A DNA stretch of 64,000 nt from Acidobacteriota bacterium (GCA_027459505.1 DAIDIE010000021.1:16803-80802), one strand, 5' to 3'. Shown: positions 16,650-58,553, counted from the stretch's first letter. The notes: generated from the sequence alone by a model not told the origin. A program made the numbers and translations.

Positions 16650-17417
16650 ATGCCCATCGACCCGACTGCTCAGATCAGCTCCCTGGCCCGCGTGCCCGCT
16701 TCCAGCCATATCGGCCCCTTTTGCGTGATTGGCGCCGAAGTGGAACTGGGGGAGGACTGCCGTCTGGAATCACATGTGGTTATTGACGGTCCCACCGTCA
16801 TTGGCGCCGGCAATCACTTTTTCCCCTTCAGCACGGTCGGCGTGGCGCCCCAGGATCTCTCCTACAAAGGCGAGCCAACGCGGCTGGAGATGGGCGATAA
16901 CAACACTGTGCGCGAGTTCTGCAGCATTCATCGCGGCACAGTCAAAGGCGGCGGCCTCACCCGCATTGGCAGCCGCAACCTGCTGATGGCCTACACCCAC
17001 ATCGCGCACGACTGCATGGTGGGCAATGACTGCATCTTCGCCAATGCCGCCACTCTCGGTGGCCATGTCAGCGTAGGCGACTTTGCCGCGGTGGGCGCTT
17101 TCAGCCCGGTACACCAGTTTGTGCGCGTTGGGCGGCACGCCTACATTGGCGGCGGCACGGTCGTCACGCAGGACGTATTGCCGTTCAGCAAGACCTCGGC
17201 AAGCCGCGAGAATGCCGCCTACGGCCCCAACAAGGTGGGCCTGGAGCGGCGCGGTTTTACCTCCGAACAGATCCGGGCGTTGAGCCGCGCCTTCCGCAGC
17301 CTGCACATGATGAACACCTCGCAGGCGCTGGAACAGATCCAGTCCGAGCCGCTCAGCAACGAGGTACGCGAACTGGTGGAGTTCATCCAGGGCAGCGAGC
17401 GCGGCTTTATCAAGTAG
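16650..17417 (+). CDS. lpxA: acyl-ACP--UDP-N-acetylglucosamine O-acyltransferase LpxA
   Basis: Left-handed beta-helix hexapeptide repeats, a C-terminal helical domain, and position after fabZ. Confidence 0.9.
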   Translation: MPIDPTAQISSLARVPASSHIGPFCVIGAEVELGEDCRLESHVVIDGPTVIGAGNHFFPFSTVGVAPQDLSYKGEPTRLEMGDNNTVREFCSIHRGTVKGGGLTRIGSRNLLMAYTHIAHDCMVGNDCIFANAATLGGHVSVGDFAAVGAFSPVHQFVRVGRHAYIGGGTVVTQDVLPFSKTSASRENAAYGPNKVGLERRGFTSEQIRALSRAFRSLHMMNTSQALEQIQSEPLSNEVRELVEFIQGSERGFIK

Positions 17418-17428
17418 ATGAACCTGTT

Positions 17429-18313
17429 ATGAGCACCAGCCTGCAAACGGACCAGCCGCTTGGCCTCATCGCCGGCAACGGCCGCTTCCCTTTCCTGGTA
17501 CTGGATGCGGCGCGCAGCCAGGGGCTGCACGTGGTAGTGGCCGCGATCCGCGAAGAAACCGACCCGGCGCTGGAAGCGCGGGCGGCACAGATGGGCGGAC
17601 GCACGCAATGGCTCAGCCTCGGGCAACTGGGAAAATTGATCGAGTTCTTTCAGGCCGCCGGCGTCCGGCAGGCGCTGATGGCTGGCCAGGTCAAGCATAA
17701 GCAAATTTTTTCCCGGCTTCGTCCGGACTGGCGCATGGTCAAACTCTTGGCTTCGCTGGCCACCAAAAACACCGACGGCCTGCTCGGGGCGGTGGTGAAT
17801 TGTCTGCAGGCGGAGGGCATTGAACTGATCCATTCCACCGTGCTGCTGCAGCCATTGCTGGCGACCGAAGGCCCGCTGACCGCGCGTGCGCTGAATGAAC
17901 AGGAGCGCGCAAACGCCGACTACGGTCTGCGCGTTGCGCGCCATCTTGCCGCGATGGATATTGGTCAGACTGTGGTCATCTCCGATTCCGCCTGTGTCGC
18001 CGCCGAAGCCATGGAAGGAACCGACGCAACCATTCGCCGCGCCGGAACGCTGGTCGAAGGCCACCCTCTCACCGTTGTCAAGGTGGCCAAGCCGAAGCAG
18101 GACCTGCGTTTCGACGTGCCTGTTATCGGGCCGGCCAGCATCGCCGCCATGCGCGATGCCGGCGCCACCGCCCTGATTGTCGAGGCGGGCATTACCTTAC
18201 TGATTGACCGGGAAGAGCTGGTGCAAAAGGCCACCCAGGCGGATATCGCTATCGAAGGCGTAGCCCGGCTTAGCCCGCAGGCGGCGCCCGCCGCATCAGG
18301 AGCACAACCGTGA
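17429..18313 (+). CDS. lpxI: UDP-2,3-diacylglucosamine pyrophosphatase LpxI (DUF1009)
   Basis: GLIAGNGRFPFLV N-terminus and a DIGQTVV motif. Lies in the conserved position after lpxA. Confidence 0.8.
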   Translation: MSTSLQTDQPLGLIAGNGRFPFLVLDAARSQGLHVVVAAIREETDPALEARAAQMGGRTQWLSLGQLGKLIEFFQAAGVRQALMAGQVKHKQIFSRLRPDWRMVKLLASLATKNTDGLLGAVVNCLQAEGIELIHSTVLLQPLLATEGPLTARALNEQERANADYGLRVARHLAAMDIGQTVVISDSACVAAEAMEGTDATIRRAGTLVEGHPLTVVKVAKPKQDLRFDVPVIGPASIAAMRDAGATALIVEAGITLLIDREELVQKATQADIAIEGVARLSPQAAPAASGAQP

Positions 18314-28500: not shown

Positions 28501-29379
28501 TTTGGCGGCCTGACGCTTCAACGACGCCACTTGCTTGGTGACTTCTTCGAAGATGTCATTGATCCGGTTCAGATTCTGGCGTGCCGATTCCAACCGCGCC
28601 TCGGCCAGCTTTTTCTTGGCCTTGTACTTGGTGACGCCCGCGGCTTCTTCGATAATCGCGCGGCGGTCGTGCGGCTTGGAGCTGAGAATCTGCCCAATAC
28701 GCCCCTGCTCGATGATCGCGTAAGAGTCGGGGCCGAGACCGGTTCCCATGAACAGGTCCTGGATGTCGCGCAGCCGGCACGGGCGCCCGTTCATCAAATA
28801 TTCGCTCTCGCCGCTGCGGTAAAGACGGCGCGTGACGACAATTTCGCCGGGCCGGTTATTGGCGATGAACTTGCGCCGTTTGCGGATGGTGAGGACGACG
28901 CCGTTGCCGTTCGCGGCGGCTTGTCCCTCGGAGCCCTGCCCGGCTTCCGCGCCTGCGGGGGCGGCCAGCACTTCTTCCATCTCTTCGCTATCGCCTTCCG
29001 CAAGTTCTTCACCCTGGGCGGCGGCCGCCTGCGCGGTCTGGGAGCTGGCCTCGTCCCAGTCGTCATGCACCTGAATCAGGGGCGGCTCGTCTTCCGGTCC
29101 GGAGTAATCTTCCGGATTCACCAGGGTCAGACTGACTTCCGCCAGGCCTGTGGCGGCGCGGTCGCGGCTGCCCGCAAAGATCACATCTTCCATCCGCTGC
29201 CCGCGCAGCGACTTGGCCGATTGCTCGCCCAGAACCCAGCTCACCGCGTCCGCGAGGTTGGATTTGCCGCAGCCATTGGGGCCCACGATGCCGACTATCC
29301 CGCTTCCGGGGAAAACCAGCTCCGTGCGATCACAGAAGGATTTGAAGCCAAGAACCTGCAACTTCTTTATTTTCAGCAT
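25537..29379 (-). CDS. smc: chromosome segregation protein SMC
   Basis: N-terminal FKSF...GPNGCGKSNLADA Walker A, long coiled coils, a hinge, and a C-terminal LSGGEKAMTAMALL...LDEVDAPLD. Confidence 0.95.
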   Translation of the reverse strand: MLKIKKLQVLGFKSFCDRTELVFPGSGIVGIVGPNGCGKSNLADAVSWVLGEQSAKSLRGQRMEDVIFAGSRDRAATGLAEVSLTLVNPEDYSGPEDEPPLIQVHDDWDEASSQTAQAAAAQGEELAEGDSEEMEEVLAAPAGAEAGQGSEGQAAANGNGVVLTIRKRRKFIANNRPGEIVVTRRLYRSGESEYLMNGRPCRLRDIQDLFMGTGLGPDSYAIIEQGRIGQILSSKPHDRRAIIEEAAGVTKYKAKKKLAEARLESARQNLNRINDIFEEVTKQVASLKRQAAKAQRYAELKAESDQHLRRLFASKADALQEQHTRVSAEHEQDRAALEAAQTGLDQAEATRAEWFQRASQVEQELRQLTEDSGKLAMELDRAERQIVFNSEQARELENRTRGFEEELSRLAEQRAAAQQELKSAEEARTAVLAEAQAARAAYQEQRAAGENESRAARELEQKADQARRRVLGLLGQISSFGNQVVQAETVIANLERQLARLDQEKQTADQELDALGVRRGQLDLEFQGQREELEQVVQEIGKLERRVSELRQNEAVSRKQLDAARAELSEIVGRRRSIEQIVAHHGYSTEAVKKLFASGAAKDKFHAMGVLADFLEVEGSYEAVVEEFLRDELNYVVVHDWNDAQSGLGVLQTDVQGRATFLVHPQDGQYKMFDLPQHLESQGIPESPNPIPLKSCVRVLNGFGKSLEHLLPKLGSGYIVPDPAVARQMATQNPQAFFLTAGGECFHNHTVSGGTHSGAGPLTLKRELRELGRREGEVSETIQRIETQLSGIAQELQVTQHDLDRLRARRHELDKQILTSGQGLKQLENEVRRLQERLRLHTVELERGRAERTQGMNRLESLQAQRQQAEQDKAAAEAEEIQINADIAEVRLRRDQAVQRVAEAQSRLAMLEERSRGAQEAFQRLEHQQRDLLNRSNQIHSDLERANQQREQLLSSSGELGEKVQQLRLRRDEAEQQRQALEQERVEARARAAELEAGVKAARDAVNALRDRFSELEVALARLQADAEHVTETCRNELNIEITELQADETIVRAAAEEMADLEQAARAIRTKIEHLGPVNMMALEEYQETQTRHQFLETQRKDLLDSIADTQKAIQEIDQISRQQFNEAFEKINAYFQESFKVLFGGGQGFLKLTDAENDPESGVDIVAQPPGKKLQNALLLSGGEKAMTAMALLLSVFQYQPSPFCVLDEVDAPLDEANVSRFSAMVRKMSEQTQFIIITHNKRTMEIAPLLYGVTMQQAGVSRLVSVNMEGKSERASA

Positions 29380-29774: not shown

Positions 29775-32051
29775 ATGGTGCCTATGCAAGATGCCGCGGG
29801 CTCGGCCGCAACGACTTCCTCTGAGCAGGGAAAGCCTTCCAGCTCCCGGATTCTGGAAAGATTCTGTCGCGCGCTGATTTTTCTGATCAGCCGAACGGTG
29901 TACCGTCTGCGAGTGATTGGACTGGCGAACCTCCCTCTTCAGGGTGGGGCGTTACTGGCTTCCAATCACTTGTCGTTGGTGGATGCCGTGCTGCTGCAGG
30001 CTGCCGTGCCGCGCCCCATCCGCTTCCTGATTTTTCGCGAGTACTACGATCACTGGCTGTTGCGGCCTCTGGCGCAAGCCATGGGGGCCATTCCCATCTC
30101 ATCGCAAATGGGCGCCCGGGAAATGCTCACGGCTTTGCGTACTGCCAGCAATGCGGTTGCCGCCGGAGATTTAGTGTGCATTTTCGCCGAAGGCGAAATC
30201 ACCCGCATTGGACAAACCCTCAGTTTCCGCCGGGGATTGGAACGCATTATGGCGCGTGCCAGCGAGCCGATCATCCCCGTTCACCTGGATGGTTTGTGGG
30301 GCAGCATTTTTAGTCTGCAGCCCGGACACGCGCTCTGGCGCCGGCCGCAGCGGCTGCCGTTCCCGGTAACGGTGAGCTTTGGCGCGGCACTGCCCCCGCA
30401 GACCAGCGCCGCGGTAGTCCGGCAGAAAGTGCAGGAACTGGCCTCGGATGCTTTTGTTTACCGCAAAGCGGCCATGCTGCCGCTGGGCCGCGCATTTATC
30501 CGCACCGCTCGCCGCGAAGGACGCGCCTTTTTCCTGGCCGATGCGCAGACCGAGAAAGTCAGCTTCGCTGGCGCCCTCATCAAGATGATCTTCCTCGCGC
30601 GGCGCCTGGCGCCGCAGTGGCGCGGGCAGCGGATGGTGGGGATTCTGCTGCCGCCCTCTCCCGCGGGTGCGCTGGTCAATTTGGCTGCCTTAGTCATGGG
30701 AAAAGTCCCCATCAACCTCAATTACACTGCCTCCGCCGGAGCGCTCCGGAGTTGCATCGAGCAATGTGAGTTGCAGACCATCATCAGCTCCCGGGCCTTT
30801 CTGGAGCGGGTGCCGCTGGACTTGCCGCTGGCGCCACTGCCCCTGGAAGATCTGGCGGCCAATCCTCGCCTGCGGGAAAAGCTCACCGCTCTTTTGCTGG
30901 CCCGGTTGGCGCCGGTGCGATTGCTGGAACGCGCCTTGGGCCTGCGCCAGCGAGTGCGAATGGATGATTTGGCAACTGTCATTTTTTCCAGTGGAAGCAC
31001 GGGGGAACCCAAAGGCGTCATGCTGTCGCACTTCAACATTGCCGCCAATGGCGAGCAACTGTTTCAGTCCTTCCGCCTGGAAGAAAACGACCGCTTCATG
31101 GGGATTTTGCCGTTTTTCCATTCCTTCGGCTTCACCGTGACCCTCTGCCTGCCAGCGGTCTACGGCCTGGGAGTGATTTTTTATCCCAACCCGCTGGACG
31201 CGAAGATGATTGGGGAACTCGCCCGCACCCGGCGCGCCACCATTCTGGTGGGCACTCCTACCTTTTTGCAGACCTATGCCCGCCGCTGCGAAGCGGGAGA
31301 TTTCGGCAGCCTGCGCCTGGTCATCGCGGGAGCGGAAAAAATGCCGGAGCGAATCGCTAACCTGTTCGAGGATCGTTTTGGCATACGGCCGCTGGAGGGC
31401 TACGGCTGCACCGAGTGCTCCCCCGTGGTGGCGGCGAACACGCTTCCGTACCGCGCGGCGGGATATGTGCAGACCGGCGCGCGCCGCGGCACCGTTGGCC
31501 GGCCGCTACCAGGCATCAGCGTCAAATTGGTCGATCCGGAAACGCGGCTGCCCTGCCCAGCGGGATCCAGCGGATTGCTGCTGGTACGCGGCCCCAACGT
31601 GATGCAGGGCTACCTCAAAGAACCGGAAAAGACCGCTGCCGTGCTGCAGCAGGGCTGGTACAACACCGGCGATCTGGCCACGATGGATGATGACGGTTTT
31701 CTCACCTTGTCTGACCGGCTCAGCCGTTTTAGCAAGATCGGCGGCGAGATGGTACCCCACCTCAAGGTCGAGGAACTGCTGCACAGTTTAAGTGGGCCGG
31801 AAGGTGGCAGCTTTGTGGTGACCTCGATTGTCGATGAACAAAAAGGCGAGAAGCTGGTCGTGCTGCACACGCTTGGCCTCGGCAAGTTGCGCCAGTTACA
31901 GGAGCAATTGGCGGCCACTGATCTTCCTAACCTGTGGCGTCCGCGGCAGTTCGTCTTTGTTGAATCACTCCCCTATCTGGGCAGCGGCAAAGTCGACCTG
32001 CGGCGCGCCCGCGAGGTGGCGCAACAACACCAGTTGGCTCACAAAAAATGA
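29775..32051 (+). CDS. bifunctional lysophospholipid acyltransferase / acyl-(ACP) synthetase (Aas-like fusion)
   Basis: N-terminal PlsC motif NHLSLVDAVLL...FAEGEITR. C-terminal adenylate-forming domain (FSSGSTGEPKGV, GYGCTE, YNTGD...DRLSRFSKIGGEMV). Confidence 0.85.
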   Translation: MVPMQDAAGSAATTSSEQGKPSSSRILERFCRALIFLISRTVYRLRVIGLANLPLQGGALLASNHLSLVDAVLLQAAVPRPIRFLIFREYYDHWLLRPLAQAMGAIPISSQMGAREMLTALRTASNAVAAGDLVCIFAEGEITRIGQTLSFRRGLERIMARASEPIIPVHLDGLWGSIFSLQPGHALWRRPQRLPFPVTVSFGAALPPQTSAAVVRQKVQELASDAFVYRKAAMLPLGRAFIRTARREGRAFFLADAQTEKVSFAGALIKMIFLARRLAPQWRGQRMVGILLPPSPAGALVNLAALVMGKVPINLNYTASAGALRSCIEQCELQTIISSRAFLERVPLDLPLAPLPLEDLAANPRLREKLTALLLARLAPVRLLERALGLRQRVRMDDLATVIFSSGSTGEPKGVMLSHFNIAANGEQLFQSFRLEENDRFMGILPFFHSFGFTVTLCLPAVYGLGVIFYPNPLDAKMIGELARTRRATILVGTPTFLQTYARRCEAGDFGSLRLVIAGAEKMPERIANLFEDRFGIRPLEGYGCTECSPVVAANTLPYRAAGYVQTGARRGTVGRPLPGISVKLVDPETRLPCPAGSSGLLLVRGPNVMQGYLKEPEKTAAVLQQGWYNTGDLATMDDDGFLTLSDRLSRFSKIGGEMVPHLKVEELLHSLSGPEGGSFVVTSIVDEQKGEKLVVLHTLGLGKLRQLQEQLAATDLPNLWRPRQFVFVESLPYLGSGKVDLRRAREVAQQHQLAHKK

Positions 32052-47507: not shown

Positions 47508-50195
47508 TCAGCGAATGTTGATGATTGCTTTCCCGGTAGTCAGGGGAATGATGCCTCCACTGGGGTTGCGGGCAATGGCACGCGTGATTGCCAACTCCGT
47601 GGGACCGGCAGCCTTGGCCCGCAGCGTAATCGTGGCAACGCTGCCGGAGCCGCTGATGCCGGCCACGTTCGGTGGACGGCTGATGGTGATCTGCGCCGTG
47701 CCGGTGGTGGAATCCTCCCGGTGGACGACCACGGCTGGCTGCCCGTCGCGTGACAACATGCCCCCGTTGAGCACGTTTTCAATCGAGATCATGCGGGGAT
47801 CGTAGTTGAGCTGCAGTGACAGCGAGTAGGCTTGGTTGACATTGGCGAGCTGCAGGCTGACCCCCACCGGATTGCCGACAATGGCATTGACGGTTGCAGG
47901 TTGAATCTGCAGCGCCGCTGCTCCGGGCTGCCCGGCGGAGTTGTTGACCGGCGCCGTCGCTGCAGGGGCCGGCGGCGCACCCGAAACGGCCGGCTGACCG
48001 GCCGGCACTTGCGCCGGCGGCACCGAGGCTGCCCCACCCGGCCCTGCCATGTTGGTATTGCCCTGCGCGGGGGGCACGGCAGAGGGCGGCGGTCCGTTGG
48101 TCACGCCGTTCTGCGGCGCGATATTGATACCGGCGGCGGTGGCCGGCGGCATCTCGTGCAGCTCAATATTCATCTGCGTGCCGGTATCGAGCGCCTCACG
48201 ATTGATGGGCGTGATGTTGAGCTTGCGCACGATGTGCGGGGTCATGATGATGAGCGTCTCGTCGTACTTACGCTCAGTGTGAGTTGTCGTAAACAAATTC
48301 TTCAGCAAAGGGATGGCGCTGAGAAATGGGATGCCGCTCACGTTGTGAACGTCATTATGGTCAAAAATACCGCCCAGAATATTGCTTTGCCCGGCCCGGA
48401 GTTGAATTGTGTGATCCACCGAACGTTGGCCTATAACCGGCTGCAGGATGCCCCCAATGGTTTGGTAGTTATCGACGGCTGAGATCACCACCTTGTTCTT
48501 CAAGCTGACCTCGTCACCATGCACGAACGGGGTAAGCTCGATGGTGACACCCACGTCCTGATATTGAAATTGGGTATTGACCAGGGAACCAAATCCCGCA
48601 TTCGCCCCAGCGGTAACGCCACCGAAAGCCGCACCGCCAAAGCTCCCCGTGGCTATCGGGATCTTCTCACCAATTTTCAGCGTTGCCTTTTGTCCGCTGG
48701 TGGCCCGCAACTCCGGATTCTGAATAGTGCGCGACTGGTTGTCGTTCATCAGAAAGTTGAGCTGAGCCGGAGAGATCGTTACCGAGAAGTCATTACGATC
48801 CAGATGCGAGAGCTGCTGGAAGCTGAAGGTAGAAGCGATTGGCGCTGAACCGCTGCCGGTGCTGCCTCCGTTGTTGCCGCTGCCGTTCGTACTATTATTA
48901 CTATTGTTATTGTTATTGTTATTGTTGTTCTGGCTAAGGTTGCTGTTCAACCCCACCGTGACGTTGGTTGGGGGCAGGATACCCAAATCCCGCAGCCGAT
49001 CCCGCGAAACCTGCAGAACCTGCACGTCTACAACAACTTCCGGGGGCGCCTTGTCCAGATCTTCAATAATCTTCTGGGCCACCGCCACTTTGTCGGGGGT
49101 ATCGCGCATCACCAGGGCCATCTGCGAGGCCACCGGCTGGAAATGCTGCAGGTTGAGCACGGTGCGAACGGCGATAGCAATATCGTTCAACTGCGCCGGC
49201 GTGGTGGCGTTGTGGACGTAGAAGGTTTTCACCACTTGCGATTCGAGGTCAATGCGCTTCTGCAGGGTGTCGTTGGCGACGAAGATCGTATTCGGCGTGA
49301 CCACCGTGTAGAAGCTCTTCGATTCCAGGCCGAGGATGCGTAACGCCTCCAGCAGCGAAACCTGTTTGAGATCCAGCGTGACGTGCTTGGGCTGGTAATC
49401 GGGATCGTAGATCACATTGATGTTGGCGAGGCGGCCAATGGTGTCGTAAGCGACGCGCGCATCGCTGGCCAAATGCAAGGTGATGGGGGTGGCGGAGACA
49501 GCGCCGAGTTCCACCGGGCCTTCCGCCTCCTCGAGCCGCCGCTGCATGTCTCCTACGGGCTGGGTCGTGCTCGCCTGGGGGGCCGGCGTCTGCGCGGCCG
49601 GCGACATCAGTTTGCGCAGGTGTGCGAGCTCCTGCGCTGCGATAAAGTTGCTCCCGTCCAGGCTGCGGGCCTTCTCGAATTCCGCCAGAGCTTCGGCGTT
49701 GAGGTGGCGCGCTTCCAACTGTTTGCCACGCTGCACGTGGGCCAGGGAGGCCTCGAAGCGGGCGCGGCGGGCGGCAATAATGTAGCGGGCGTCGTTGGGC
49801 TTAAGGCGCAGGGCGACGCTGTAATCAGCGTAGGCGGTATCGTAGTTGTGCGCCTGTTCCTGTTTCAGCCCGGCGTTATAAAACGAATGAGCGCGATCAG
49901 CCAAGGCCGGGGTGGCAGCCAGCAAGAGGGCCGCGGTGGCGGTCAGCAGGCGACGGCAAGCCGGGGGCGATTTTGGGGCCGAAAGCGGCGAAGCCGCGGA
50001 AAACCAAAGTCGGGATTTCAACAAAACTCGTGCCTCACCATGAACCCCGCCCGGCTGCGAGCAGGAAAATTGATAGCGGAAGCAGTGCTCGGCAAGCCAA
50101 CTGCCTGGGCAAACACTGCGTCCGGCCCTGCGCGGCACGGCAGCGCACCTGCAGTTCCCGGCTAGAGGCCTAAGGAAAGGTACGTTTCCGCGCAA
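47508..50195 (-). CDS. secretin (GspD/PilQ family) with TPR-like N-terminus, poly-Asn linker and cohesin-like C-terminal domain
   Basis: Secretin C-domain ...GIPFLSAIPLLKNLF....ETLIIMTPHIV. N-terminal TPR-like helices. An N9SNNSTN tract. The C-terminal 150 aa (VGVSLQLANVNQAYSLSLQLNYDPRMISIENV...) are cohesin-like. The true start is probably internal. Confidence 0.85.
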   Translation of the reverse strand: MRGNVPFLRPLAGNCRCAAVPRRAGRSVCPGSWLAEHCFRYQFSCSQPGGVHGEARVLLKSRLWFSAASPLSAPKSPPACRRLLTATAALLLAATPALADRAHSFYNAGLKQEQAHNYDTAYADYSVALRLKPNDARYIIAARRARFEASLAHVQRGKQLEARHLNAEALAEFEKARSLDGSNFIAAQELAHLRKLMSPAAQTPAPQASTTQPVGDMQRRLEEAEGPVELGAVSATPITLHLASDARVAYDTIGRLANINVIYDPDYQPKHVTLDLKQVSLLEALRILGLESKSFYTVVTPNTIFVANDTLQKRIDLESQVVKTFYVHNATTPAQLNDIAIAVRTVLNLQHFQPVASQMALVMRDTPDKVAVAQKIIEDLDKAPPEVVVDVQVLQVSRDRLRDLGILPPTNVTVGLNSNLSQNNNNNNNNNSNNSTNGSGNNGGSTGSGSAPIASTFSFQQLSHLDRNDFSVTISPAQLNFLMNDNQSRTIQNPELRATSGQKATLKIGEKIPIATGSFGGAAFGGVTAGANAGFGSLVNTQFQYQDVGVTIELTPFVHGDEVSLKNKVVISAVDNYQTIGGILQPVIGQRSVDHTIQLRAGQSNILGGIFDHNDVHNVSGIPFLSAIPLLKNLFTTTHTERKYDETLIIMTPHIVRKLNITPINREALDTGTQMNIELHEMPPATAAGINIAPQNGVTNGPPPSAVPPAQGNTNMAGPGGAASVPPAQVPAGQPAVSGAPPAPAATAPVNNSAGQPGAAALQIQPATVNAIVGNPVGVSLQLANVNQAYSLSLQLNYDPRMISIENVLNGGMLSRDGQPAVVVHREDSTTGTAQITISRPPNVAGISGSGSVATITLRAKAAGPTELAITRAIARNPSGGIIPLTTGKAIINIR

Positions 50196-51280: not shown

Positions 51281-53161
51281 ATGCCAGTAGTCGACATCTC
51301 CCTGCAGCAACTCGATTCCACCAGTCACATCCATGAAGACATCCAGCGCCGCCTGGCGGCGGAGCGGGAACGCCTGTTGGCGGAGCTCAAAACGCAGTCT
51401 CCGCCGCAACATTTTGCCCGCCCGGCGGAGCGCCCCTTTACCGCCGCGGAACGATCGCGAGTGACCATCCTGTTTGGCGGCCTGACCTGGAAGCACGAAA
51501 GTGTTATCCGCGCCGCCTTTGAGGGGAGCGGCTATCGCTGCCAAATCCTTCCCGTGCCCAACGTAGCGGCCTTCCAGATCGGTAAGGAGTACGGCAACAA
51601 CGGCCAGTGCAACCCCACCTATTTCACGGTGGGAAACCTGGTGCAGTTTCTCAAGTCATTGCAAGCGCAGGGACTTTCGCGACAGCAGATTATTGATGAC
51701 TACGTTTTCTTTACGGCTGGATCCTGCGGACCGTGCCGTTTTGGCATGTACGAGGCGGAGTACCGGCTGGCCTTGCGCAATGCAGGCTTTGAAGGCTTCC
51801 GGGTACTGCTGTTCCAGCAGAACGAAGGGATTAAGGCCGCCTCTGGCGAGCCCGGGCTGAAGTTCACTGTGGACTTCGGTATGTCCATGTTCCACGCGCT
51901 CAACCTGGGCGACATTCTTAACGAAATGATTTACCGCATCCGCCCTTACGAGGCGGAGCCCGGAAAAACCGATCGCGTCTTCCGCGAGTTCATCGCGGAA
52001 CTCTGTCAGGAGATGCGCGAGCGGACTCCCTATGAAATCCTGCAACGCACGCCTCCCTGGATATCGCAGCGGCTGGCGCGCAACAAGAAGCTCAAAGACG
52101 TTCTCAACTCTTTTGCCAAGGTCGGTGATCACCTTTATGGCCGCCAGACAGAAGCCGCCTTGGCCCACTGCGCCGAGCGGCTGAGCACAATCGAAGTCGA
52201 TCGGCTCAAGGTGAAGCCGGTGGTGAAGATCATTGGCGAGTTCTGGGCGCAGATCACCGAAGGGGACGGCAATTTCAATATGTTCGCCTTCCTGGAGCGT
52301 GAGGGGGCGCAGGTTCTGGTTGAGCCGATTGCGACCTGGGTGCTTTACATGATGTATCAGGCGCGTATTCGCGCCATTGGACGTAAGGGGCTGGAGCAGG
52401 GTCTAGCCCAGTGGTGGGAGGTGGGCAAGAAGCTCCGGCAGGAGCTTGGCGTCGCCAGGACTTGCGCACTGTTGTCTCTTGGCGAACGCATTTATGCCAA
52501 CCAGTATCACCGCACGGTACGAGCGTTGGGCAATGTCGCGCATGAATTGATTTCGCAAAAGGAACTGGCGCGTTTGGCCCAACCCTACTACCACCGTCTG
52601 GCGCGTGGCGGTGAAGGGCATCTCGAAGTCGGCAAAAACATTTATTACACCGTGCATCATCTCTGCCACATGGTGCTGGCGCTGAAACCGTTTGGCTGCA
52701 TGCCGTCCTCGCAGTCGGACGGGGTGCAGTCGGCGGTGGCGAACCATTTCAAGGAAATGATCTTTTTGCCCATCGAGACTTCCGGAGAAGGCGAGATCAA
52801 TGCCCACAGCCGTGTGCAGATGGCTTTAGGCGAGGCCAAAGTGCGAGCCAAAGCCGAGTTCGAGCAATGCCTTTCGGGCACCGGGCGCACGCTGCCGCAA
52901 ATTCGCGATTACGTGGCGGCTCATCCGGAGTTGCGCCATCCGTTCTATCAGGTTCCGCACGTGGAAGGGGTGACGGGCGTGGCGGCACAGTTTGTGCTGC
53001 ACGTCGACCGGCTGATGAAGCGCGACGAGCGCGCCTGGCGGCGGACCAGAATCTTCCGGGAGGAGGGGGTGAGGCCCCTAGCTCTCTCTGCGCGTGTCCA
53101 GGTTCCAATGGCATCCGCCAAGGCGGATACAGCAAACGTTGTCGAGAAGAACTATGCCTGA
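51281..53161 (+). CDS. acyl-CoA dehydratase activase-related protein (DUF2229-type half, no ATPase domain)
   Basis: TILFGGLTWKHESVIRAAFEGSGY...NNGQCNPTYF...GSCGPCRFGMYEAEY...LKPFGCMPSSQSDG. Paralogous to the C-terminal part of the 1207-aa protein. Confidence 0.8.
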   Translation: MPVVDISLQQLDSTSHIHEDIQRRLAAERERLLAELKTQSPPQHFARPAERPFTAAERSRVTILFGGLTWKHESVIRAAFEGSGYRCQILPVPNVAAFQIGKEYGNNGQCNPTYFTVGNLVQFLKSLQAQGLSRQQIIDDYVFFTAGSCGPCRFGMYEAEYRLALRNAGFEGFRVLLFQQNEGIKAASGEPGLKFTVDFGMSMFHALNLGDILNEMIYRIRPYEAEPGKTDRVFREFIAELCQEMRERTPYEILQRTPPWISQRLARNKKLKDVLNSFAKVGDHLYGRQTEAALAHCAERLSTIEVDRLKVKPVVKIIGEFWAQITEGDGNFNMFAFLEREGAQVLVEPIATWVLYMMYQARIRAIGRKGLEQGLAQWWEVGKKLRQELGVARTCALLSLGERIYANQYHRTVRALGNVAHELISQKELARLAQPYYHRLARGGEGHLEVGKNIYYTVHHLCHMVLALKPFGCMPSSQSDGVQSAVANHFKEMIFLPIETSGEGEINAHSRVQMALGEAKVRAKAEFEQCLSGTGRTLPQIRDYVAAHPELRHPFYQVPHVEGVTGVAAQFVLHVDRLMKRDERAWRRTRIFREEGVRPLALSARVQVPMASAKADTANVVEKNYA

Positions 53162-54485
53162 ACCACAACTGCTGCCCAGCGCCCCGCCGGAGGGGTACAC
53201 CGCACCGGCTTACAAGCTGGACGTGCCGCTGCACGCCGTCCTCATGGGGAGCCAACCCGGTCAACGCTCGCTGCCGCCCATCCCGCCGCCCGGAGCGCCA
53301 CTGCAATCGCTGCCCGAGCCGGTGTTTCCGCAACGTCCCGAACTGCTGGGTGAGGATAACCCGCGCGACCCGGACTGGAGCTTGCCGGCGCATCAGCGGC
53401 GTCACTGGACGCCACACCAGATCGTGCACACCTTGCAGGGCTGGCTGGTTCCCTATATGAAGTCGCGGGTCAAGCCGGGCGACTTCCATCCCCTGATCGC
53501 TTACCTGTTCACCGAGTGGAAATGTAATCTCGACTGCAATTACTGCTGGGCGTTTGACAATCGCGTCAAAGGAATGAACGAGGATGTCGCGCGGCGGTCG
53601 ATCGACTGGCTTTTTGATCACGATTGCCGTGTGCTGGCGCTGATGGGGGGCGAGCCGCTGCTGCGGCCGGATTTCGCGCACAAGGTGATTTACTACGCGG
53701 CCAAGCGCGGCATGTGGGTTTACCTGCCCACCAATGGGCGCCTGATGCGCGAAGACGTGATTGACAAGCTGGCCGATGCGGGGCTGGCGACGTTAAACCT
53801 CGCCGTCGACGCGGTAGACATCAAGCCCGGATTGCCCAAGGCGCTGGCGCCCATCCGCAACTACTTCGATTACCTGGTGAAGCGGCAGTATCGCTACGGT
53901 TATTCCGTCTTTTTCAACGTCAATATCTGCCGCAACAACCTCGATGACGTCCGCCAGCTCACTGAGATCGCGAGGGACAACGGCATTGCGACGGACTACC
54001 ACGTCTGCGAAACGCCATTGACGGAACAGTCGCACTTCCGCCATTTAAACGACAACCCCACCTACATCCGTCCGGAGGACTGGCCGCTGGTGGATGAGGT
54101 GCTGGACTGGCTGATTGAGAAGCAGAAGGGCGGTTACCGCATGCTGAACTCGACCAGCCGACTGGCGCAGATGAAGACCTTCATGCGCAGCGGCATGAAT
54201 GAACCCTGGAACTGCCGGGCCGGCCAGAACTCGCTGATCATTCGCACCGATGGCAGTCTGGCGCCCTGCTTTCCCATGTATTCGGCCACCTACGATTGGG
54301 GGCACATCGAGAAGCAGAAGTTTGAAACGGCCCAGCTCAACCAGATGAAAGAGTCGTGCCAGCAGCACTGCTTCTCTACTCTGAATCACATTCTGGGTTA
54401 CTGCTATGACGATGGGCGCGTAATTCGCACCTTCTTCCGGCAAGCGCTGCGCGGTTTCCAGGGCATCGAGGGCAACCTCGAATAG
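53154..54485 (+). CDS. radical SAM protein with SPASM/twitch-like C-terminal Cys cluster
   Basis: CNLDCNYC (53523-53546), GGEPLL, and CRAGQNSLIIRTDGSLAPC...CQQHC...C. ATG 53154 overlaps the upstream stop by 8 nt. About 115 aa of Pro-rich sequence precede the core. Confidence 0.85.
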   Translation: MPEPQLLPSAPPEGYTAPAYKLDVPLHAVLMGSQPGQRSLPPIPPPGAPLQSLPEPVFPQRPELLGEDNPRDPDWSLPAHQRRHWTPHQIVHTLQGWLVPYMKSRVKPGDFHPLIAYLFTEWKCNLDCNYCWAFDNRVKGMNEDVARRSIDWLFDHDCRVLALMGGEPLLRPDFAHKVIYYAAKRGMWVYLPTNGRLMREDVIDKLADAGLATLNLAVDAVDIKPGLPKALAPIRNYFDYLVKRQYRYGYSVFFNVNICRNNLDDVRQLTEIARDNGIATDYHVCETPLTEQSHFRHLNDNPTYIRPEDWPLVDEVLDWLIEKQKGGYRMLNSTSRLAQMKTFMRSGMNEPWNCRAGQNSLIIRTDGSLAPCFPMYSATYDWGHIEKQKFETAQLNQMKESCQQHCFSTLNHILGYCYDDGRVIRTFFRQALRGFQGIEGNLE

Positions 54486-54504
54486 AAACTTTGGGAGAAG
54501 ATGC

Positions 54505-57500
54505 ATGCCTTGTGGCAGCGGCTGCGGACAGCGTGACCATGGGACGAGCGCGGGGCGGGAGAGCGCTATCGACGTCGGTATTGGCGCGCTGGTGAAACCC
54601 GCCAGCATGAAGCAGAAGGTAGCGGTGCGCCCAGCGGGTCGGTTTGAAGGCCGCTACCTGATGGGCATGGATGTGGGCTCGACCACCGTGAAGGCGGTGC
54701 TGGTGGAGGCGGGCAGCGATCAGGTCGTCTGGCAGGACTACCAGCGCCACGAAACCAAGCAGCCGGAAAAGGTTCTTGAGTTCCTGGAGAGGATGGAGCA
54801 GGATGCCGGGGTTGACATCAGCAACACCCGCGTCTTTGTCACCGGCTCGGGCGGCGGCTCATTGGCGGCGCTGCTGGGCGCCAAGTTCGTCCAGGAGGTC
54901 ACCGCCGTCTCGCTAGCCGTGGAGAAGCTGCATCCCGAGGTGAACTCGGTCATCGAACTGGGCGGTCAGGACGCCAAGATTATCGTCTTCCAAAAGGACG
55001 AAAGCACGGGGCGCAAGAAAAAGATTCCATCGATGAACGACAAATGCGCCGGCGGCACGGGCGCGGTCATCGATAAGATCAACGCGAAGCTGAAAATTCC
55101 GGTCGAGCAGCTCAGTGATCAAGGTTATTACGGACTCAAGCTGCATCCGGTGGCGGGCAAGTGCGGCGTGTTCGCCGAGACTGACATCAACGGACTGCAG
55201 AAACAGGGCATTCCTCCCGATCAACTCATGGCATCGCTGTTTGACGCGATTGTGATGCAGAACCTTTCGGTGCTGACCCGGGGACATACGCTGCGCCCAC
55301 ACGTTTTGCTGCTGGGCGGGCCCAATACGTTTATCCGCGGCATGCAGGAAGCCTGGCGGGCAAACATTCCCAAAACCTGGCAGGAGCGCAAGGTGCAGGT
55401 TCCGGAGGGACTGAGCGCCGAGGAACTGATCAAGGTTCCCGAAAACGCGCAATACTATGCGGCGCTGGGAGCAGTGGAATTCGGGCGAGCGGAAGAGGAG
55501 CCGGTGGGGCGCTACGCCGGGCGGGAGGCGCTGCAGGACTACATTGTGTTTGGCCGTCAGAAGGAAAAAGAAGAGTCGGGGGGCTCCGGGCTGAGCGGGT
55601 CGCCGGAGGAGTTGGCAGCGTTCAAGGAGCGTTACAGCATTCCCGCGTTCCGGCCGGCCGCGATCAGCGGAATGACGGAGCTGGAAGGTTTCATCGGCGT
55701 CGATGGTGGCTCGACCTCGACCAAAGCCGTGGTGCTCAATGCGGAGGGCGAGGTCCTGTTCAAGGCTTACCAGCTCTCTAACGGCAACCCCATTCAAGAC
55801 ACCATGGACATGTTTGCCTCGCTCCGCCAGCAGGTGGAGGAGCGTGGCGCGCGGTTGAAGGTGCTCGGCGTGGGGACCACCGGCTATGCCAAAGACATCC
55901 TGCGGGACATCCTGCACGCGGATGTGGCGCTGGTGGAGACGGTGGCGCATACCGAATCGGCACGGCGCTTTTACGAGGACCCGCATGTGATTGTCGACGT
56001 GGGCGGGCAGGACATTAAGCTGATCGTGCTGAAGGACGGGCGGGTGAAAGACTTCCGTCTGAACACGCAATGCTCGGCGGGCAACGGCTACTTTCTGCAA
56101 TCGACGGCGGAGGGCTTTGGCCTGGACGTGAACCAATACGCTGATCTTGCCTTCCAGGCGCAGAGCATGCCGCTCTTCGGTTATGGCTGCGCGGTGTTCA
56201 TGCAGTCCGACATTGTGAATTTCCAGCGCCAGGGCTGGAAGCCGGAGGAGATTCTGGCGGGACTGGCGGCGGTGCTGCCGAAAAACATTTTTCTGTATGT
56301 CGCCAGCATCCCCAACCTGGCCAAGCTCGGCTCCCGGTTTGTGCTGCAGGGCGGGACCCAGAAGAACATTGCCGCCGTCAAGGCCGAGGTGGACTTCATC
56401 CACTCCCACTTTCATGGCAGCGAGCGGCAGCCGGAAGTCATCGTTCACCAGCATTGTGGCGAATCCGGCGCCATTGGGGCGGCCGTGGAGGCGATCCGCT
56501 TGTGGCGTCATGGACGTGCGACCAGCTTCATCGGACTCGATGCCGTGCAATCGATTCGCTACCGCACCACCCGCAATGAGAATACGCGCTGCTATTTCTG
56601 CAAGAACAACTGTCTGCGGACGTTCATTGACGTCAGCACAGTGCCGCTGGAACAGTGGCAGCAGCCAACGTTTAAATCGAAGGTGCCGTTGGAGGCGGGA
56701 CAGCAGCGGCTGATCATCTCGACTTGCGAAAAAGGACAGGTCGAGGATGTGGGCGCCATGCGCAACATCAAGGCGGGTCTGGATGCGCTCAAGAACGCAC
56801 ACCCCAACTTTGTGGACATCGCGGCGCGCGAAGTCTGGCGGCCCCGCAATCCGGCGAAAGTCGCCGATCCGATCCCCAGCCGGGTCTGGACGCGCGCGGC
56901 GCGCGAGCGGGCGCAACTCATGAGAAAACGTTCCAGCATGCGCATCGGGATGCCGCGCGTGCTCAACATGTACGTCTACGCGCCACTGTTCAGCGCCTAC
57001 TTCGAGAGCCTCGGAATTGAACCGGAGAACCTGGTCTACTCCGATTTCACCAACCACGACATGTACAAGGCGGGAGCGGGCCGCGGCGCGATCGACCCCT
57101 GCTTCCCTTCCAAGATCGGCATTCCACATGTTTACGACCTGCTCTTTGTGAAGCACGCGAAAAAGCCGCTCAATGCCATCTTCTTTCCTATGATCGACGT
57201 GCTGCACACCTGCCTGGTCAACGCGGTGGGCAGCAACGCCTGCCCGACCGTGACCGCGACGCCAGAAACGGTGAAAGCGGCTTTCGTCAAAGAGGGTGAC
57301 ATCTTCGCCGAGCGCGGCGTTTTGTACGTCGATCCCATCGTCGATCTGAAAGACCGCAAACTGTTCGCGCGGCAGATGCTGGAGGCCTGGGGGCCGGTGC
57401 TGGGATTGTCGCCGGAGGAAAATGAACGCGCGGTGGCGGCCGGTTACCGGGGGCTGAGCGACTATGAAAGCGATATCCGCCGCCGCGCCCGCGCCGTCCT

Positions 57501-58128
57501 GGACCAACTGGAGGCGGAGAACCGTGTCGGCATTGTCATGCTCGGGCGCCCGTATCACCATGATCCCGGGTTGAACCACGAAATCATGGACGAGTTCCAG
57601 AAGCTTGGCTACCCGATGTTTTCGCAAAGCACACTGCCGCTGGATGAGGACCTGCTGGAACGGCTATTCGGCGAGGATGTCCGCGCGGGACGCATCAGCC
57701 ATCCCATGGACATCACCGATGTCTGGAAAAACGCCTACTCGGCCAGTACCAACCATAAAATATGGGCGGCGAAGTTCACCGCGCGCCATCCCAATCTGGT
57801 GGCATTGGAGGTCTCGAACTTCAAGTGCGGCCATGACGCGCCCATCTACTCCACCATTGAAGACATTATTGAGAGTTCCGGAACGCCGTATTTCGCGTTC
57901 AAGGATCTCGACGAAAACAAACCAACCGGTTCGATTCGCATACGCGTGGAAACGATTGATTACTTCCTCAAGCGTTACCGCGAGGACTTGGCACAGCGCG
58001 CCCAGCGCGGCAGTTTGACCATGGAAGACATTGAACGGCAACTGGCGGAAATGGAACGCGAGCTGCTGCGCGAGGCGGGCCTGGCGCCTGGCGCGGTATC
58101 AGCCGGAAGCGCCATGAGCGCCGCCTGA
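54505..58128 (+). CDS. double BcrAD/BadFG-type activase ATPase fused to a DUF2229 domain (PlsA/HgdC-activase-like)
   Basis: Two actin-fold phosphate-1 motifs, GMDVGSTTVKAV (from 54664) and GVDGGSTSTKAV (from 55696). C-terminal IGMPRVLNMYVYAPLFSAYFESLG...DPCFPSK...SNFKCGHDAP. RBS GGGAGAAG lies before the ATG. Confidence 0.9.
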   Translation: MPCGSGCGQRDHGTSAGRESAIDVGIGALVKPASMKQKVAVRPAGRFEGRYLMGMDVGSTTVKAVLVEAGSDQVVWQDYQRHETKQPEKVLEFLERMEQDAGVDISNTRVFVTGSGGGSLAALLGAKFVQEVTAVSLAVEKLHPEVNSVIELGGQDAKIIVFQKDESTGRKKKIPSMNDKCAGGTGAVIDKINAKLKIPVEQLSDQGYYGLKLHPVAGKCGVFAETDINGLQKQGIPPDQLMASLFDAIVMQNLSVLTRGHTLRPHVLLLGGPNTFIRGMQEAWRANIPKTWQERKVQVPEGLSAEELIKVPENAQYYAALGAVEFGRAEEEPVGRYAGREALQDYIVFGRQKEKEESGGSGLSGSPEELAAFKERYSIPAFRPAAISGMTELEGFIGVDGGSTSTKAVVLNAEGEVLFKAYQLSNGNPIQDTMDMFASLRQQVEERGARLKVLGVGTTGYAKDILRDILHADVALVETVAHTESARRFYEDPHVIVDVGGQDIKLIVLKDGRVKDFRLNTQCSAGNGYFLQSTAEGFGLDVNQYADLAFQAQSMPLFGYGCAVFMQSDIVNFQRQGWKPEEILAGLAAVLPKNIFLYVASIPNLAKLGSRFVLQGGTQKNIAAVKAEVDFIHSHFHGSERQPEVIVHQHCGESGAIGAAVEAIRLWRHGRATSFIGLDAVQSIRYRTTRNENTRCYFCKNNCLRTFIDVSTVPLEQWQQPTFKSKVPLEAGQQRLIISTCEKGQVEDVGAMRNIKAGLDALKNAHPNFVDIAAREVWRPRNPAKVADPIPSRVWTRAARERAQLMRKRSSMRIGMPRVLNMYVYAPLFSAYFESLGIEPENLVYSDFTNHDMYKAGAGRGAIDPCFPSKIGIPHVYDLLFVKHAKKPLNAIFFPMIDVLHTCLVNAVGSNACPTVTATPETVKAAFVKEGDIFAERGVLYVDPIVDLKDRKLFARQMLEAWGPVLGLSPEENERAVAAGYRGLSDYESDIRRRARAVLDQLEAENRVGIVMLGRPYHHDPGLNHEIMDEFQKLGYPMFSQSTLPLDEDLLERLFGEDVRAGRISHPMDITDVWKNAYSASTNHKIWAAKFTARHPNLVALEVSNFKCGHDAPIYSTIEDIIESSGTPYFAFKDLDENKPTGSIRIRVETIDYFLKRYREDLAQRAQRGSLTMEDIERQLAEMERELLREAGLAPGAVSAGSAMSAA

Positions 58129-58165
58129 GCGCACGCGTGCCGGGCGGACTAGAAGGAGATCCATC

Positions 58166-58441
58166 ATGCCAGCCGCGATCATGTTTGAAATCTATCGCGA
58201 CAGCCGCGTACACAACTATCGCGTGGTCTATTTCACCGAATTGGGCGAGTACGACAAGGATCGCGAGATCACCCGGGCGCTGGAGGGCGAGCACGTCTAT
58301 GACGGCTACATTGCCACATCCCGCACGGAGGCGCGGCAGGTCATCAACGAGATCGTGGCGCGGCTCAACGCCGGCGAGGCGCTGGCGGCGGAGGCAATTG
58401 CAGCGCGCCTGCTGCCGTTCGCAGAGCCCGGAAGCGCGTGA
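58166..58441 (+). CDS. small hypothetical protein (91 aa), last gene of the operon
   Basis: Strong SD (GAAGGAG) 8 nt upstream of the ATG. Same strand, 37 nt after the activase gene. No family recognised. Confidence 0.6.
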   Translation: MPAAIMFEIYRDSRVHNYRVVYFTELGEYDKDREITRALEGEHVYDGYIATSRTEARQVINEIVARLNAGEALAAEAIAARLLPFAEPGSA

Positions 58442-58553
58442 GCGGCACGGCCGCTTTTATTCCACCGCGGACCTAAACGGCAACCCCGGACCTTCGCTAC
58501 GGCTTCGGCCTGCGATTTCAAACTCGAAAGCAGTTCGACTCGGCCCTGGCTCG
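58442..58553 (+). repeat. structured intergenic repeat, copy E (central module deleted)
   Basis: Starts right after the TGA of the 91-aa ORF. Has the 5' hairpin module and the 3' module but lacks the roughly 60-nt GCTTCGG...CCGAAGC...TCGCCAGCGG module. Confidence 0.9.

Follow-up and report, generated by a model that had tools for sequence, protein, structure and literature searches.

A PlsA/PlsR-type gene pair in an acidobacterial operon and its linkage to an uncharacterized radical SAM family

The operon and its genes

The operon described here lies in a 64,000-nucleotide (nt) stretch of DNA from an Acidobacteriota bacterium (GCA_027459505.1, DAIDIE010000021.1:16803-80802), analyzed at its full length and referred to below as the window. 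Four co-directional open reading frames (ORFs) occupy positions 51281 to 58441 (Table 1). ORF1 and ORF3 very probably encode, on the evidence of their sequences, the two halves of a PlsAR/Ger-type lipid reductase, ORF2 encodes an enzyme of the radical S-adenosylmethionine (SAM) type and ORF4 a protein of 91 residues. The pair formed by ORF1 and ORF3 is of a known enzyme kind that had been flagged earlier in Acidobacteria. New, with respect to the literature searched, is the recurrent operon linkage of this pair to an abundant radical SAM family which is itself uncharacterized, and to a small conserved protein; a planctomycete cassette in which the pair is linked to the tetraether lipid enzyme Tes is a third new observation.

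The gene coordinates proposed in a first-pass annotation, made by a model from the sequence alone, were confirmed, together with the start/stop overlap of ORF2 and ORF1 and the gaps of 19 and 37 nt that follow from the coordinates. In alignment, the ATG taken as the start of ORF2 agrees with the N-termini of its homologs, and the sequence AGGAGA is found 7 nt 5' of the ORF4 ATG. The GC content at third codon positions (GC3) is 0.73–0.79 for the three large ORFs, in a window of ~61% GC, and each of the four proteins has from hundreds to thousands of homologs. By these measures all four ORFs are real genes. The short GC hairpin directly after the ORF4 stop codon folds at -15.1 kcal/mol, which is not better than shuffled sequences (z -0.96), and it was not reported by a terminator scan whose yield was no more than chance; it is at best a possible terminator. 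Nothing was found by the promoter scan, and Rfam gave no credible match in or around the operon.

Table 1. Positions in the window of the operon genes and of features within them
Feature	Position	Strand	Description or basis
ORF1, 626 aa	51281..53161	+	PlsR-type catalytic partner of the putative ester reductase; no ATPase module
8-nt overlap ATGCCTGA, ORF2 start/ORF1 stop	53154..53161	+	Sequence
ORF2, 443 aa	53154..54485	+	Radical SAM enzyme of an uncharacterized Terriglobia family
ORF2 CX3CX2C cluster motif, C124/C128/C131, CNLDCNYC	53523..53546	+	Translation; invariant in 20 homologs
ORF2 auxiliary-cluster cysteines, C354-X12-G-X4-C372, then C402-X3-C406-X10-C417	54213..54404	+	Alignment
ORF3, 1207 aa	54505..58128	+	PlsA/Ger-type: double HgdC-type activase, Cys-rich linker, DUF2229 catalytic half
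ORF3 ATPase module 1, ~residues 53-330	54661..55494	+	BcrAD_BadFG; conserved Cys181, Cys220
ORF3 ATPase module 2, residues 397-663	55693..56493	+	BcrAD_BadFG; conserved Cys523, Cys562
ORF3 linker cysteines, C696-X2-C699-X3-C703 ... C741	56590..56727	+	Conservation
ORF3 DUF2229, residues 813-1041	56941..57627	+	PF09989, 2.3e-45
ORF4, 91 aa	58166..58441	+	Small conserved protein; regarded as accessory partner of the PlsA-like gene
Short GC hairpin GCGGC-ACG-GCCGC, then TTTTATT	58442..58461	+	Sequence; directly after the ORF4 stop

The ORF1/ORF3 pair

Of the domains looked for with profile models in the four proteins, BcrAD_BadFG, DUF2229 and Radical_SAM were found, SPASM was matched only below its threshold and HGD-D was not found; neither ORF1 nor ORF4 has a Pfam match. 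ORF3 contains, as had been proposed, two BcrAD_BadFG modules followed by a DUF2229 domain, and the motifs GMDVGSTTVKAV and GVDGGSTSTKAV are present. It matches PF01869 (BcrAD_BadFG) at 1.9e-69 in two stretches and the NCBIfam model TIGR00241 with 207 bits (cut-off 125), while the NCBIfam models benz_CoA_bzdQ and benz_CoA_red_D match residues 53-259 and 53-288 of ORF3, in the first module. In sequence searches of the PDB, the ATPase modules gave hits to MbdQ, to the activator of 2-hydroxyisocaproyl-CoA dehydratase and to HgdC. When 24 sequences were compared, including those of Brevibacillus, Phycisphaerae and Listeria, the cysteine pair of each ATPase module and all four linker cysteines were found to be kept in every one, and Cys866 and Cys913 within DUF2229 and Cys1108 just downstream of it are likewise conserved. 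The linker cysteines are predicted to bind an iron-sulfur (Fe-S) cluster, and the conserved cysteines as a set, from Terriglobia to Brevibacillus, Phycisphaerae and Listeria, would outline the expected path of electrons.

ORF1 proved much harder to place. It has no match in NCBIfam or in Pfam (in the latter even at E<=10), none in the PDB by phmmer or by profile, and its best BLASTP alignment to ORF3 (E 0.41) is not significant. Given these null searches, the paralogy to DUF2229 that the first-pass annotation had assigned to ORF1 is not demonstrable by sequence, and a relation to the catalytic halves of this enzyme class is seen only at the level of the fold and through fused homologs. That ORF1 lacks an ATPase domain was borne out, none being matched by Pfam. 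The AlphaFold2 model of ORF1 (predicted local distance difference test score, pLDDT, 76) has as its best Foldseek matches in the PDB BzdNO, the double-cubane cluster protein (6eno/7yyl_A) and MbdO/N, with probabilities of 0.57-1.0, weak E-values (from 2e-3) and template modeling (TM) scores of ~0.3. In a tblastn search of a plasmid collection, ORF1 was matched (E 5e-21) to the C-terminal third (~residues 982-1354) of a fused 1475-aa protein of Listeria monocytogenes, a bacterium which reportedly makes plasmalogens. As ORF3 aligns with residues 5-973 of the same protein (29% identity over ~1100 residues, E 5e-131), the pair is colinear with a fused PlsA-type protein.

A profile search with ORF1 against 1.84 billion cluster representatives returned 2341 related clusters. 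An ORF1-like region is fused to a double activase plus DUF2229 in two further proteins, N-terminally in one of 1623 aa (P0298) and C-terminally in one of 1579 aa (P0308). Homologs of ORF1 at 63–70% identity number in the thousands, and some carry the labels 'predicted nucleotide-binding protein' (Joint Genome Institute, JGI) or 'activator of 2-hydroxyglutaryl-CoA dehydratase' (NCBI). Cys110, Cys152 and Cys473 are kept in all 24 homologs compared, and Cys149 in all except that of Listeria. ORF1 is very probably the PlsR-type half of the enzyme. A different fusion was seen in a 1271-aa protein from the representative search (P0300), in which an ORF1-like N-terminal region is joined to Fer4_20, Pyr_redox_2 (a GltD-like NAD(P)H oxidoreductase) and ferredoxin domains, and where an NAD(P)H-linked electron supply may replace the ATP-driven activase.

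The domains of ORF3, the colinearity of the pair with the Listeria protein and a published acidobacterial pair all agree with the earlier assignment of ORF1 and ORF3 to a PlsA/PlsR (Ger)-type machine. The splitting of this scaffold over two genes, which had been singled out as unusual, is in fact the archetypal arrangement, since PlsA (1004 aa) and PlsR (420 aa) of Clostridium perfringens are the products of two genes (PMC10087280, Table S6), as are those of the acidobacterial pair Acid_0921/Acid_0922 of Solibacter usitatus, already proposed to form the ether bonds of brGDGTs (branched glycerol dialkyl glycerol tetraethers) by Halamka et al. 2022 (PMC10087280). Acid_0922 (1188 aa) is 30.2% identical to PlsA (1.5e-126) and Acid_0921 (589 aa) 20.9% identical to PlsR (2e-14; PMC10087280). 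As the sizes, gene order and phylum of Acid_0921/Acid_0922 match those of ORF1/ORF3, the two pairs are probably orthologous; the pair was also found in Bryobacterales metagenome-assembled genomes (MAGs; loci L072 and L078). The published account of Acid_0921/Acid_0922 makes no mention of an adjacent radical SAM gene or small ORF (PMC10087280).

The C. perfringens genes (CPE1195/CPE1194) resemble those of the window in that the gene for the small partner precedes that for the large protein, and in their domains, PlsA having HgdC-type ATPase module(s) plus DUF2229 and PlsR no ATPase. They differ in that both ORF1 (626 versus 420 aa) and ORF3 are ~200 aa longer, in the additional radical SAM and 91-aa genes of the window, and in the host, an acidobacterium, the phylum being known for saturated alkyl ethers and not for plasmalogens. 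Ger has a 'BBD' core, made up of two activase domains and DUF2229 and reported for every producer of alkyl ethers, with a variable C-terminal part, and makes alkyl ethers when expressed anaerobically in Escherichia coli (PMC13159169). The Ger proteins of Thermotoga maritima (Tmari_0479) and Desulfatibacillum alkenivorans share the two activases and DUF2229 with ORF3, and the product expected of Ger, a saturated alkyl ether, fits acidobacterial lipids. Ger is however a single chain whose C-terminus has short HGD-D and DUF2229 matches in Pfam, whereas in the window this part is a separate protein that has no Pfam match.

The radical SAM family of ORF2

The identification of ORF2 as a radical SAM enzyme was upheld by a Pfam Radical_SAM match (2.6e-17) and by the CNLDCNYC motif. 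A SPASM/twitch-like cysteine tail had also been described. The Cys-rich C-terminus is present, but the SPASM match (PF13186, residues 354-392) reaches only 20.8 bits against a cut-off of 21.5. In alignment with homologs C354, C372, C402 and C406 are invariant and C417 is nearly so; C259 is invariant too. The tail has the CX12GX4C element, with CX3CX10C standing in place of the CX2CX5CX3C block of SPASM, which suggests a twitch-like or partial SPASM region, not the full seven-cysteine motif, and at least one auxiliary cluster. An N-terminal extension of ~110 aa is Pro-rich and has conserved motifs.

Members of the family are 430–443 aa long, highly conserved and found in Terriglobia. Among 8000 candidates scored, 3104 are homologs at E<=1e-5, the top 120 having 64–72% identity. 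The best NCBIfam scores are ~60 bits (highest 61.7), obtained with NirJ2, AhbD, PapB, the tungsten-cofactor maturase and others, against cut-offs of 340-650, so ORF2 belongs to no curated family. Peptide-maturase models gave ~45-59 bits (cut-offs 340-725), and no PqqD/RRE-type model of Pfam was matched. Only the core of ORF2 matches PDB entries by sequence or profile, with CteB, viperins, GDGT-MAS, AbmM and MoaA about equal. A review of lipid radical SAM enzymes of 2026 lists nothing like it (PMC13459092).

ORF2 had been connected with Tes/GDGT-MAS and Mss, enzymes of membrane-spanning lipid synthesis which are likewise radical SAM proteins with auxiliary Fe-S cluster(s). The searches revealed nothing that ties ORF2 specifically to Tes/GDGT-MAS. 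ORF2 is shorter than Tes and Mss, which are proteins of 510-713 aa, the match of GDGT-MAS (7tol) is confined to residues 115-235 of ORF2 (E 6.4e-6; 6e-6 to 2e-7 across the searches), and GDGT-MAS is absent from the top 50 fold matches of the ORF2 model. Two candidate identities were rejected. Assignment as Tes failed because the Tes model NF045702 was not among the 25 families listed and 7tol matches the generic core only. Assignment as a heme enzyme, to which the NirJ/AhbD-like matches and some URO-D-like and HemY-like neighbors had pointed, failed on scores of ~60 bits against cut-offs of 500 and because those neighbors are confined to particular clades.

Linkage of the radical SAM gene to the pair

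An alignment of ORF1 was scanned against one genome per species of GTDB, which gave at least 594 relatives, and the best 80 were examined. These are all from Terriglobia MAGs (Korobacteraceae, Sulfotelmatobacter, Acidoferrum, Acidiferrales, Bryobacterales and some mislabeled bins), none of them more than 68% identical to the window, which would accordingly stem from a Terriglobia lineage, and the ORF1 and ORF3 homologs are adjacent in every locus long enough to judge. Homologs of ORF2 lie near the pair in 30 of the 67 evaluable species genomes, placed between its two genes in 16 (the clade of the window), upstream in nine and downstream in five, and in all 30 they run in the direction of the pair at a distance of a few hundred nt or less. 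In the reverse view, taken from 80 metagenome loci centered on the radical SAM gene, 37 are linked to the pair (20 between, 15 upstream and 2 downstream). Linkage in three gene orders at roughly half of the loci is far beyond chance, and no other gene family is conserved around the pair or the radical SAM gene in loci from both anchors. There is a second group with the 'between' order, whose pair is 47–55% identical to that of the window and whose radical SAM gene is still 62–64% identical. In the literature searched, no description of a linkage between PlsA/PlsR-type genes and a radical SAM gene in Acidobacteria was found.

Conservation of the gene neighborhood, named in the first-pass annotation as a check, is only partial: the radical SAM gene is non-randomly linked, but its order varies and it is absent near the pair in 37 of the 67 genomes. 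The tight coupling of ORF1, ORF2 and ORF3 also exists in the window but is lineage-specific and not general, since the radical SAM gene of most other 'between' loci is set off from its neighbors on either side by roughly 50-420 nt.

These observations bear on the proposal of a single integrated radical machine, an obligate ORF1-ORF2-ORF3 complex in which the double activase of ORF3 would also reduce the cluster of ORF2. The overlap of ORF1 with ORF2 and the 19-nt gap to ORF3 agree with such a complex, two divergent clades of the pair share the 'between' order, and the conserved N-terminal extension of ORF2 could be a docking region. The proposal is weakened by the three gene orders, by the many loci that have no radical SAM gene within ~8 kb and by the occurrence of this gene alone. 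Other lineages have the same module with Tes or with no radical SAM gene, PlsAR and Ger do not require such a partner for activity (PMC13159169), and among the homologs listed none has ORF2 fused to either partner. We regard a single machine as distinctly improbable. The variable order and solitary occurrence suggest that ORF2 is a partner in the pathway and not an obligate subunit.

Several individual loci show variation around this linkage. One Terriglobales MAG (DATMQI01; L025 and L044) contains two ORF1-ORF3 pairs, one having a downstream radical SAM gene and the other none nearby, which shows that a single genome can have paralogous pairs. At two loci (L021, ~7485-7625; L082, ~7419-7655), short stretches just upstream of ORF1 homologs match the last 50-80 residues of the radical SAM protein and look like remnants of a lost upstream radical SAM gene. 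In a Bryobacteraceae MAG (L078, 5467-7352) a 369-aa protein distantly related to ORF2 (27% identity; hhalign probability 98.9), which lacks the N-terminal extension, and a LolA-like gene lie in convergent orientation right after the ORF3 homolog. A clade of solitary radical SAM genes with 59–61% identity (L147, L148, L150, L155, L161, L162, L163 and L166) shares a syntenic block (e.g., L162, 2959-9296) composed of an 846-aa AMP-ligase/carrier/acyltransferase-like fusion, a DedA-like membrane protein and a HemY-like flavin adenine dinucleotide (FAD) oxidase, as judged by eye.

The small protein ORF4

ORF4, which had been called an orphan, has relatives: its family numbers at least 367 proteins of ~91-94 aa, for which there is no Pfam domain. 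The protein has no cysteine and is conserved over its full length (45–56% identity), like a folded protein. Among the Terriglobia loci the family is confined to the clade of the window, usually downstream of ORF3 and once divergently upstream; in the 83 ORF1-centered loci its homologs are absent from all those with an 'upstream' or 'downstream' radical SAM gene. Outside this clade a member directly follows the PlsA-like gene in the Phycisphaerae locus described below (L167) and in L173, a locus without a radical SAM gene close by, at which the homologs of ORF1, ORF3 and ORF4 have identities of 53, 61 and 55%.

The position of ORF4 in one operon with a radical SAM enzyme that bears a SPASM/twitch-like tail raises the possibility that ORF2 modifies the ORF4 product, in the manner of the maturation of a ribosomally synthesized and post-translationally modified peptide (RiPP). 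This is very improbable. The small gene follows the PlsA-like gene and not the radical SAM gene, including at loci without ORF2 (L167, L173, L175); a member stands alone in one Planctomycetota MAG (L169). To this are added its cysteine-free, fully conserved sequence, its absence from the 'upstream' and 'downstream' loci and the lack of a PqqD/RRE-type match in ORF2. ORF4 is regarded as an accessory protein of this PlsAR subfamily and not as a substrate of the radical SAM enzyme.

At two loci (L175, 7188-9282; L176, 802-2896) decayed PlsA-like fragments without ATPase modules, covering ORF3 residues ~644-984 and 1072-1190, are followed by an intact gene of the ORF4 family.

The module in other lineages

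A Phycisphaerae MAG (GCA_023150615.1, JAKLKO010000003.1; L167, 2567-11519) has the genes in the order ORF1-like (613 aa, 52% identity), ORF3-like (1264 aa, 59%), ORF4-like (109 aa, 54%) and Tes (713 aa), and the identical sequence occurs in a second sample (L168). A ~750-nt spacer with a dubious 145-aa gene call separates the PlsR-like from the PlsA-like gene. The last protein, which has an N-terminal Zn-ribbon domain, passes the Tes model (NF045702, 502.9 bits, cut-off 450) and matches 7tol at E 6.8e-115. ORF3 is 59–61% identical to its homologs in this locus and in L173. The cassette is independent genomic support for the module acting on membrane-spanning ether lipids. A resolvase gene just downstream hints at mobility.

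In Brevibacillus laterosporus the pair (ORF1-like 39%, ORF3-like 47%) is found without a radical SAM gene and 2.5-4 kb from genes for diacylglycerol (DAG) kinase and monogalactosyldiacylglycerol (MGDG) synthase. On the megaplasmid of strain B9 (NZ_CP011076.1; L171, 548-15147) the PlsA-like gene precedes the ORF1-like gene, and the pair is itself preceded by a split lanthipeptide-dehydratase cluster with a PqqD/M50 gene and followed by the kinase and synthase genes.

The enzymes HgdC/HgdAB, HadI/HadBC, Bzd, Mbd and the double-cubane protein with its reductase share with the operon the ATP-driven 'archerase' logic. In these systems the electron is delivered to a catalytic Fe-S heterodimer by an actin-fold ATPase that holds a bridging cluster. 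The operon differs from the HgdC/Bzd-type systems, which include no radical SAM enzyme, in that a single chain unites both of its ATPase modules with one catalytic half, and in that the expected substrate would be a membrane lipid ester and not a CoA thioester. A rival reading takes the resemblance further and makes the pair a reductase or dehydratase of the benzoyl-CoA-reductase/hydroxyacyl-CoA-dehydratase/double-cubane class that acts on a soluble substrate, with ORF2 as a tailoring enzyme or cofactor maturase. Benzoyl-CoA reductases, dehydratase activators and the double-cubane protein are indeed the fold and sequence neighbors of the pair, a lipid role of the acidobacterial members would be an argument from homology, and the curated families nearest to ORF2 include heme and cofactor enzymes (NirJ2, AhbD, the tungsten-cofactor maturase), some solitary ORF2 genes lying close to URO-D-like (precomputed Pfam) or HemY-like (by eye) genes. 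The colinearity of ORF3 and ORF1 with PlsA-type fused proteins, however, extends over their full length, the module adjoins Tes in the Phycisphaerae MAG and has lipid genes in its vicinity in Brevibacillus, the surroundings show no conservation of genes for a CoA-ligase, a thiolase or aromatic degradation, and ORF2 scores far below the cut-offs of the curated families. A function outside lipid metabolism is thus improbable.

The Phycisphaerae cassette also bears on what ORF2 itself may do. It could be a third membrane-spanning-lipid synthase, neither Tes nor Mss, which joins the ends of two iso-C15 chains to give iso-diabolic acid or the cores of brGDGTs while the pair turns esters into ethers, so that the operon would be a brGDGT cassette comparable to Mss plus Ger or Tes plus Ger. 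In the Phycisphaerae MAG, Tes ends the same module that carries ORF2 in Terriglobia. The acidobacterial genomes screened have no Mss homolog (the published criterion for Mss being E<=1e-50 and at least 30% identity), and only 3 of 14 producers of iso-diabolic acid have Tes homologs under stringent criteria, for which reasons an 'alternative pathway' was proposed (PMC13159169). ORF2 is more conserved than its partners in the divergent 'between' group, its frequent occurrence alone could be understood if the spanning lipids of many strains are all ester-bound, and it has auxiliary-cluster cysteines such as the mechanism of Tes, Gms and Mss requires (PMC13459092). Against this stand the generic core match to GDGT-MAS, the top 50 fold matches, in which that enzyme does not appear, and the failure of ORF2 to reach a Tes model which the Phycisphaerae protein passes. 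According to Chen et al. 2025, as cited in a later paper (PMC13023045), Koribacter versatilis makes its tetraesters by a Tes homolog and S. usitatus its brGDGTs by Tes plus Ger. A third synthase is accordingly an unlikely identity for ORF2.

Proposed function of the operon

The reading which we favor, with modest confidence, is that the locus encodes two additional partners along with a Terriglobia version of the ATP-driven lipid reductase of PlsA/PlsR (Ger) type, which turns esters into ethers, and that ORF2 is a separate tailoring enzyme. A role in ether or membrane-spanning lipids, as first suggested, is the most plausible one because the radical SAM gene is non-randomly linked to a PlsA/PlsR-type pair, and the Phycisphaerae Tes locus points the same way. 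The parts of this reading are not equally secure. By homology the pair probably makes ether lipids; the participation of ORF2 in that pathway is about evenly balanced, and chain coupling as its specific reaction is doubtful.

The chemistry proposed here is an extrapolation from the observed architecture, conserved cysteines, homology, linkage and distribution. The ATPase modules of ORF3 would hold a bridging [4Fe-4S] cluster through Cys181/220 and Cys523/562, as in the HgdC dimer, and ATP hydrolysis would drive an electron of low potential by way of the Cys-rich linker to the catalytic half. There the DUF2229 region (Cys866/913/1108) would pair with ORF1 (Cys110/152/473) in a heterodimer comparable to that of the alpha and beta subunits of 2-hydroxyacyl-CoA dehydratases and benzoyl-CoA reductases, and by homology with PlsAR and Ger this heterodimer would reduce a glycerolipid ester to an alk(en)yl ether under low oxygen, with ORF4 assisting as a small accessory protein. 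ORF2 would act separately on the same lipids, its 5'-deoxyadenosyl radical activating an unreactive C-H bond of an alkyl chain. The leading guess is that, in ether or membrane-spanning lipids, ORF2 joins chain ends by C-C coupling or modifies the chain in a related way; alternatively it would desaturate or oxidize a position next to the ether carbon.

A number of observations weigh against this interpretation. The tie of ORF1 and ORF3 to validated PlsAR/Ger consists of the published BLAST of the S. usitatus pair and the Listeria comparison, the HGD-D (PF06050) signature reported for Ger C-termini was not found in ORF1 by Pfam at E<=10, and the acidobacterial members have been assigned from sequence, PlsAR and Ger being themselves known only from genetics. 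In E. coli, PlsAR and Ger need no radical SAM partner (PMC13159169). The ORF2 homolog is missing within ~8 kb of the pair in the 37 genomes noted above; it stands alone with at least 3 kb on both sides in 12 of the 80 radical-SAM-centered loci, the other unlinked loci being too short to judge, and on contigs of 0.4-0.55 Mb close orthologs (65–67% identity) stand by themselves. ORF2 bears no particular resemblance to Tes, nor by the literature to Mss, and its AlphaFold2 model is poor (pLDDT 57), so that its generic fold matches carry little weight. True Tes homologs occur in K. versatilis, S. usitatus and Edaphobacter aggregans (PMC8941075). Finally, the link to Tes is that of a single genome seen in two samples, as Tes was not found within ~8 kb of the pair in any of ~166 other loci.

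Significance for tetraether lipids

Branched GDGTs are among the most widely used terrestrial proxies of paleotemperature and pH. Their producers and biosynthetic genes are only partly known, and papers of 2022 to 2026 call the acidobacterial steps hypothetical. The locus defines an acidobacterial PlsAR/Ger-type module as ORF1, ORF3 and the small ORF4-family protein, a module whose genetic tie to Tes in a planctomycete supports a tetraether role, and it draws attention to a radical SAM family, unstudied but abundant and highly conserved, that is linked to the module in Terriglobia. The operon genes could serve as markers for tracing ether-lipid producers in soils and peat.

A stronger proposal, which we consider unlikely though worth stating, is that the ORF2 family is an unrecognized lipid enzyme of Terriglobia that completes the synthesis of brGDGTs or iso-diabolic acid ethers together with the PlsAR/Ger-type reductase. 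It may then be a third, independently evolved chain-coupling synthase that replaces or complements Tes, or may carry out a new radical step at the ether-forming carbon. If this were true, acidobacterial producers of tetraethers could be recognized by a compact genetic marker, the ORF1-ORF2-ORF3-ORF4 cassette. The locus is of real interest to the brGDGT field because these ideas are directly testable.

Neighboring genes in the window

The neighbors of the operon in the window are unrelated to it and include a secretin, glycosyltransferases, a PMT_2-family protein and a glycogen-debranching-type enzyme. Closest to the operon on its upstream side, in the reverse orientation, is the secretin gene (47508-50195, minus strand), whose 895-aa product has a C-terminal cohesin domain. 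An Aas-like gene that joins an acyltransferase to an AMP-binding enzyme is found ~20 kb upstream of the operon, and the window contains LpxA- and LpxI-type lipid A genes as well (29775-32051 and 16650-18313, both plus strand, for this set of genes); no conserved link between them and the operon was seen. The largest ORF of the window (25537-29379, minus strand) encodes 1280 aa with a GC3 of 0.79. Near the start of the window, an ATP-binding cassette (ABC) transporter ATPase (9048-10190, plus strand) is fused to Fe_dep_repr_C, the C-terminal metal-binding/dimerization domain of iron-dependent repressors; its gene adjoins that of an FtsX/MacB-type permease, with an FTR1-FtrD iron permease upstream.

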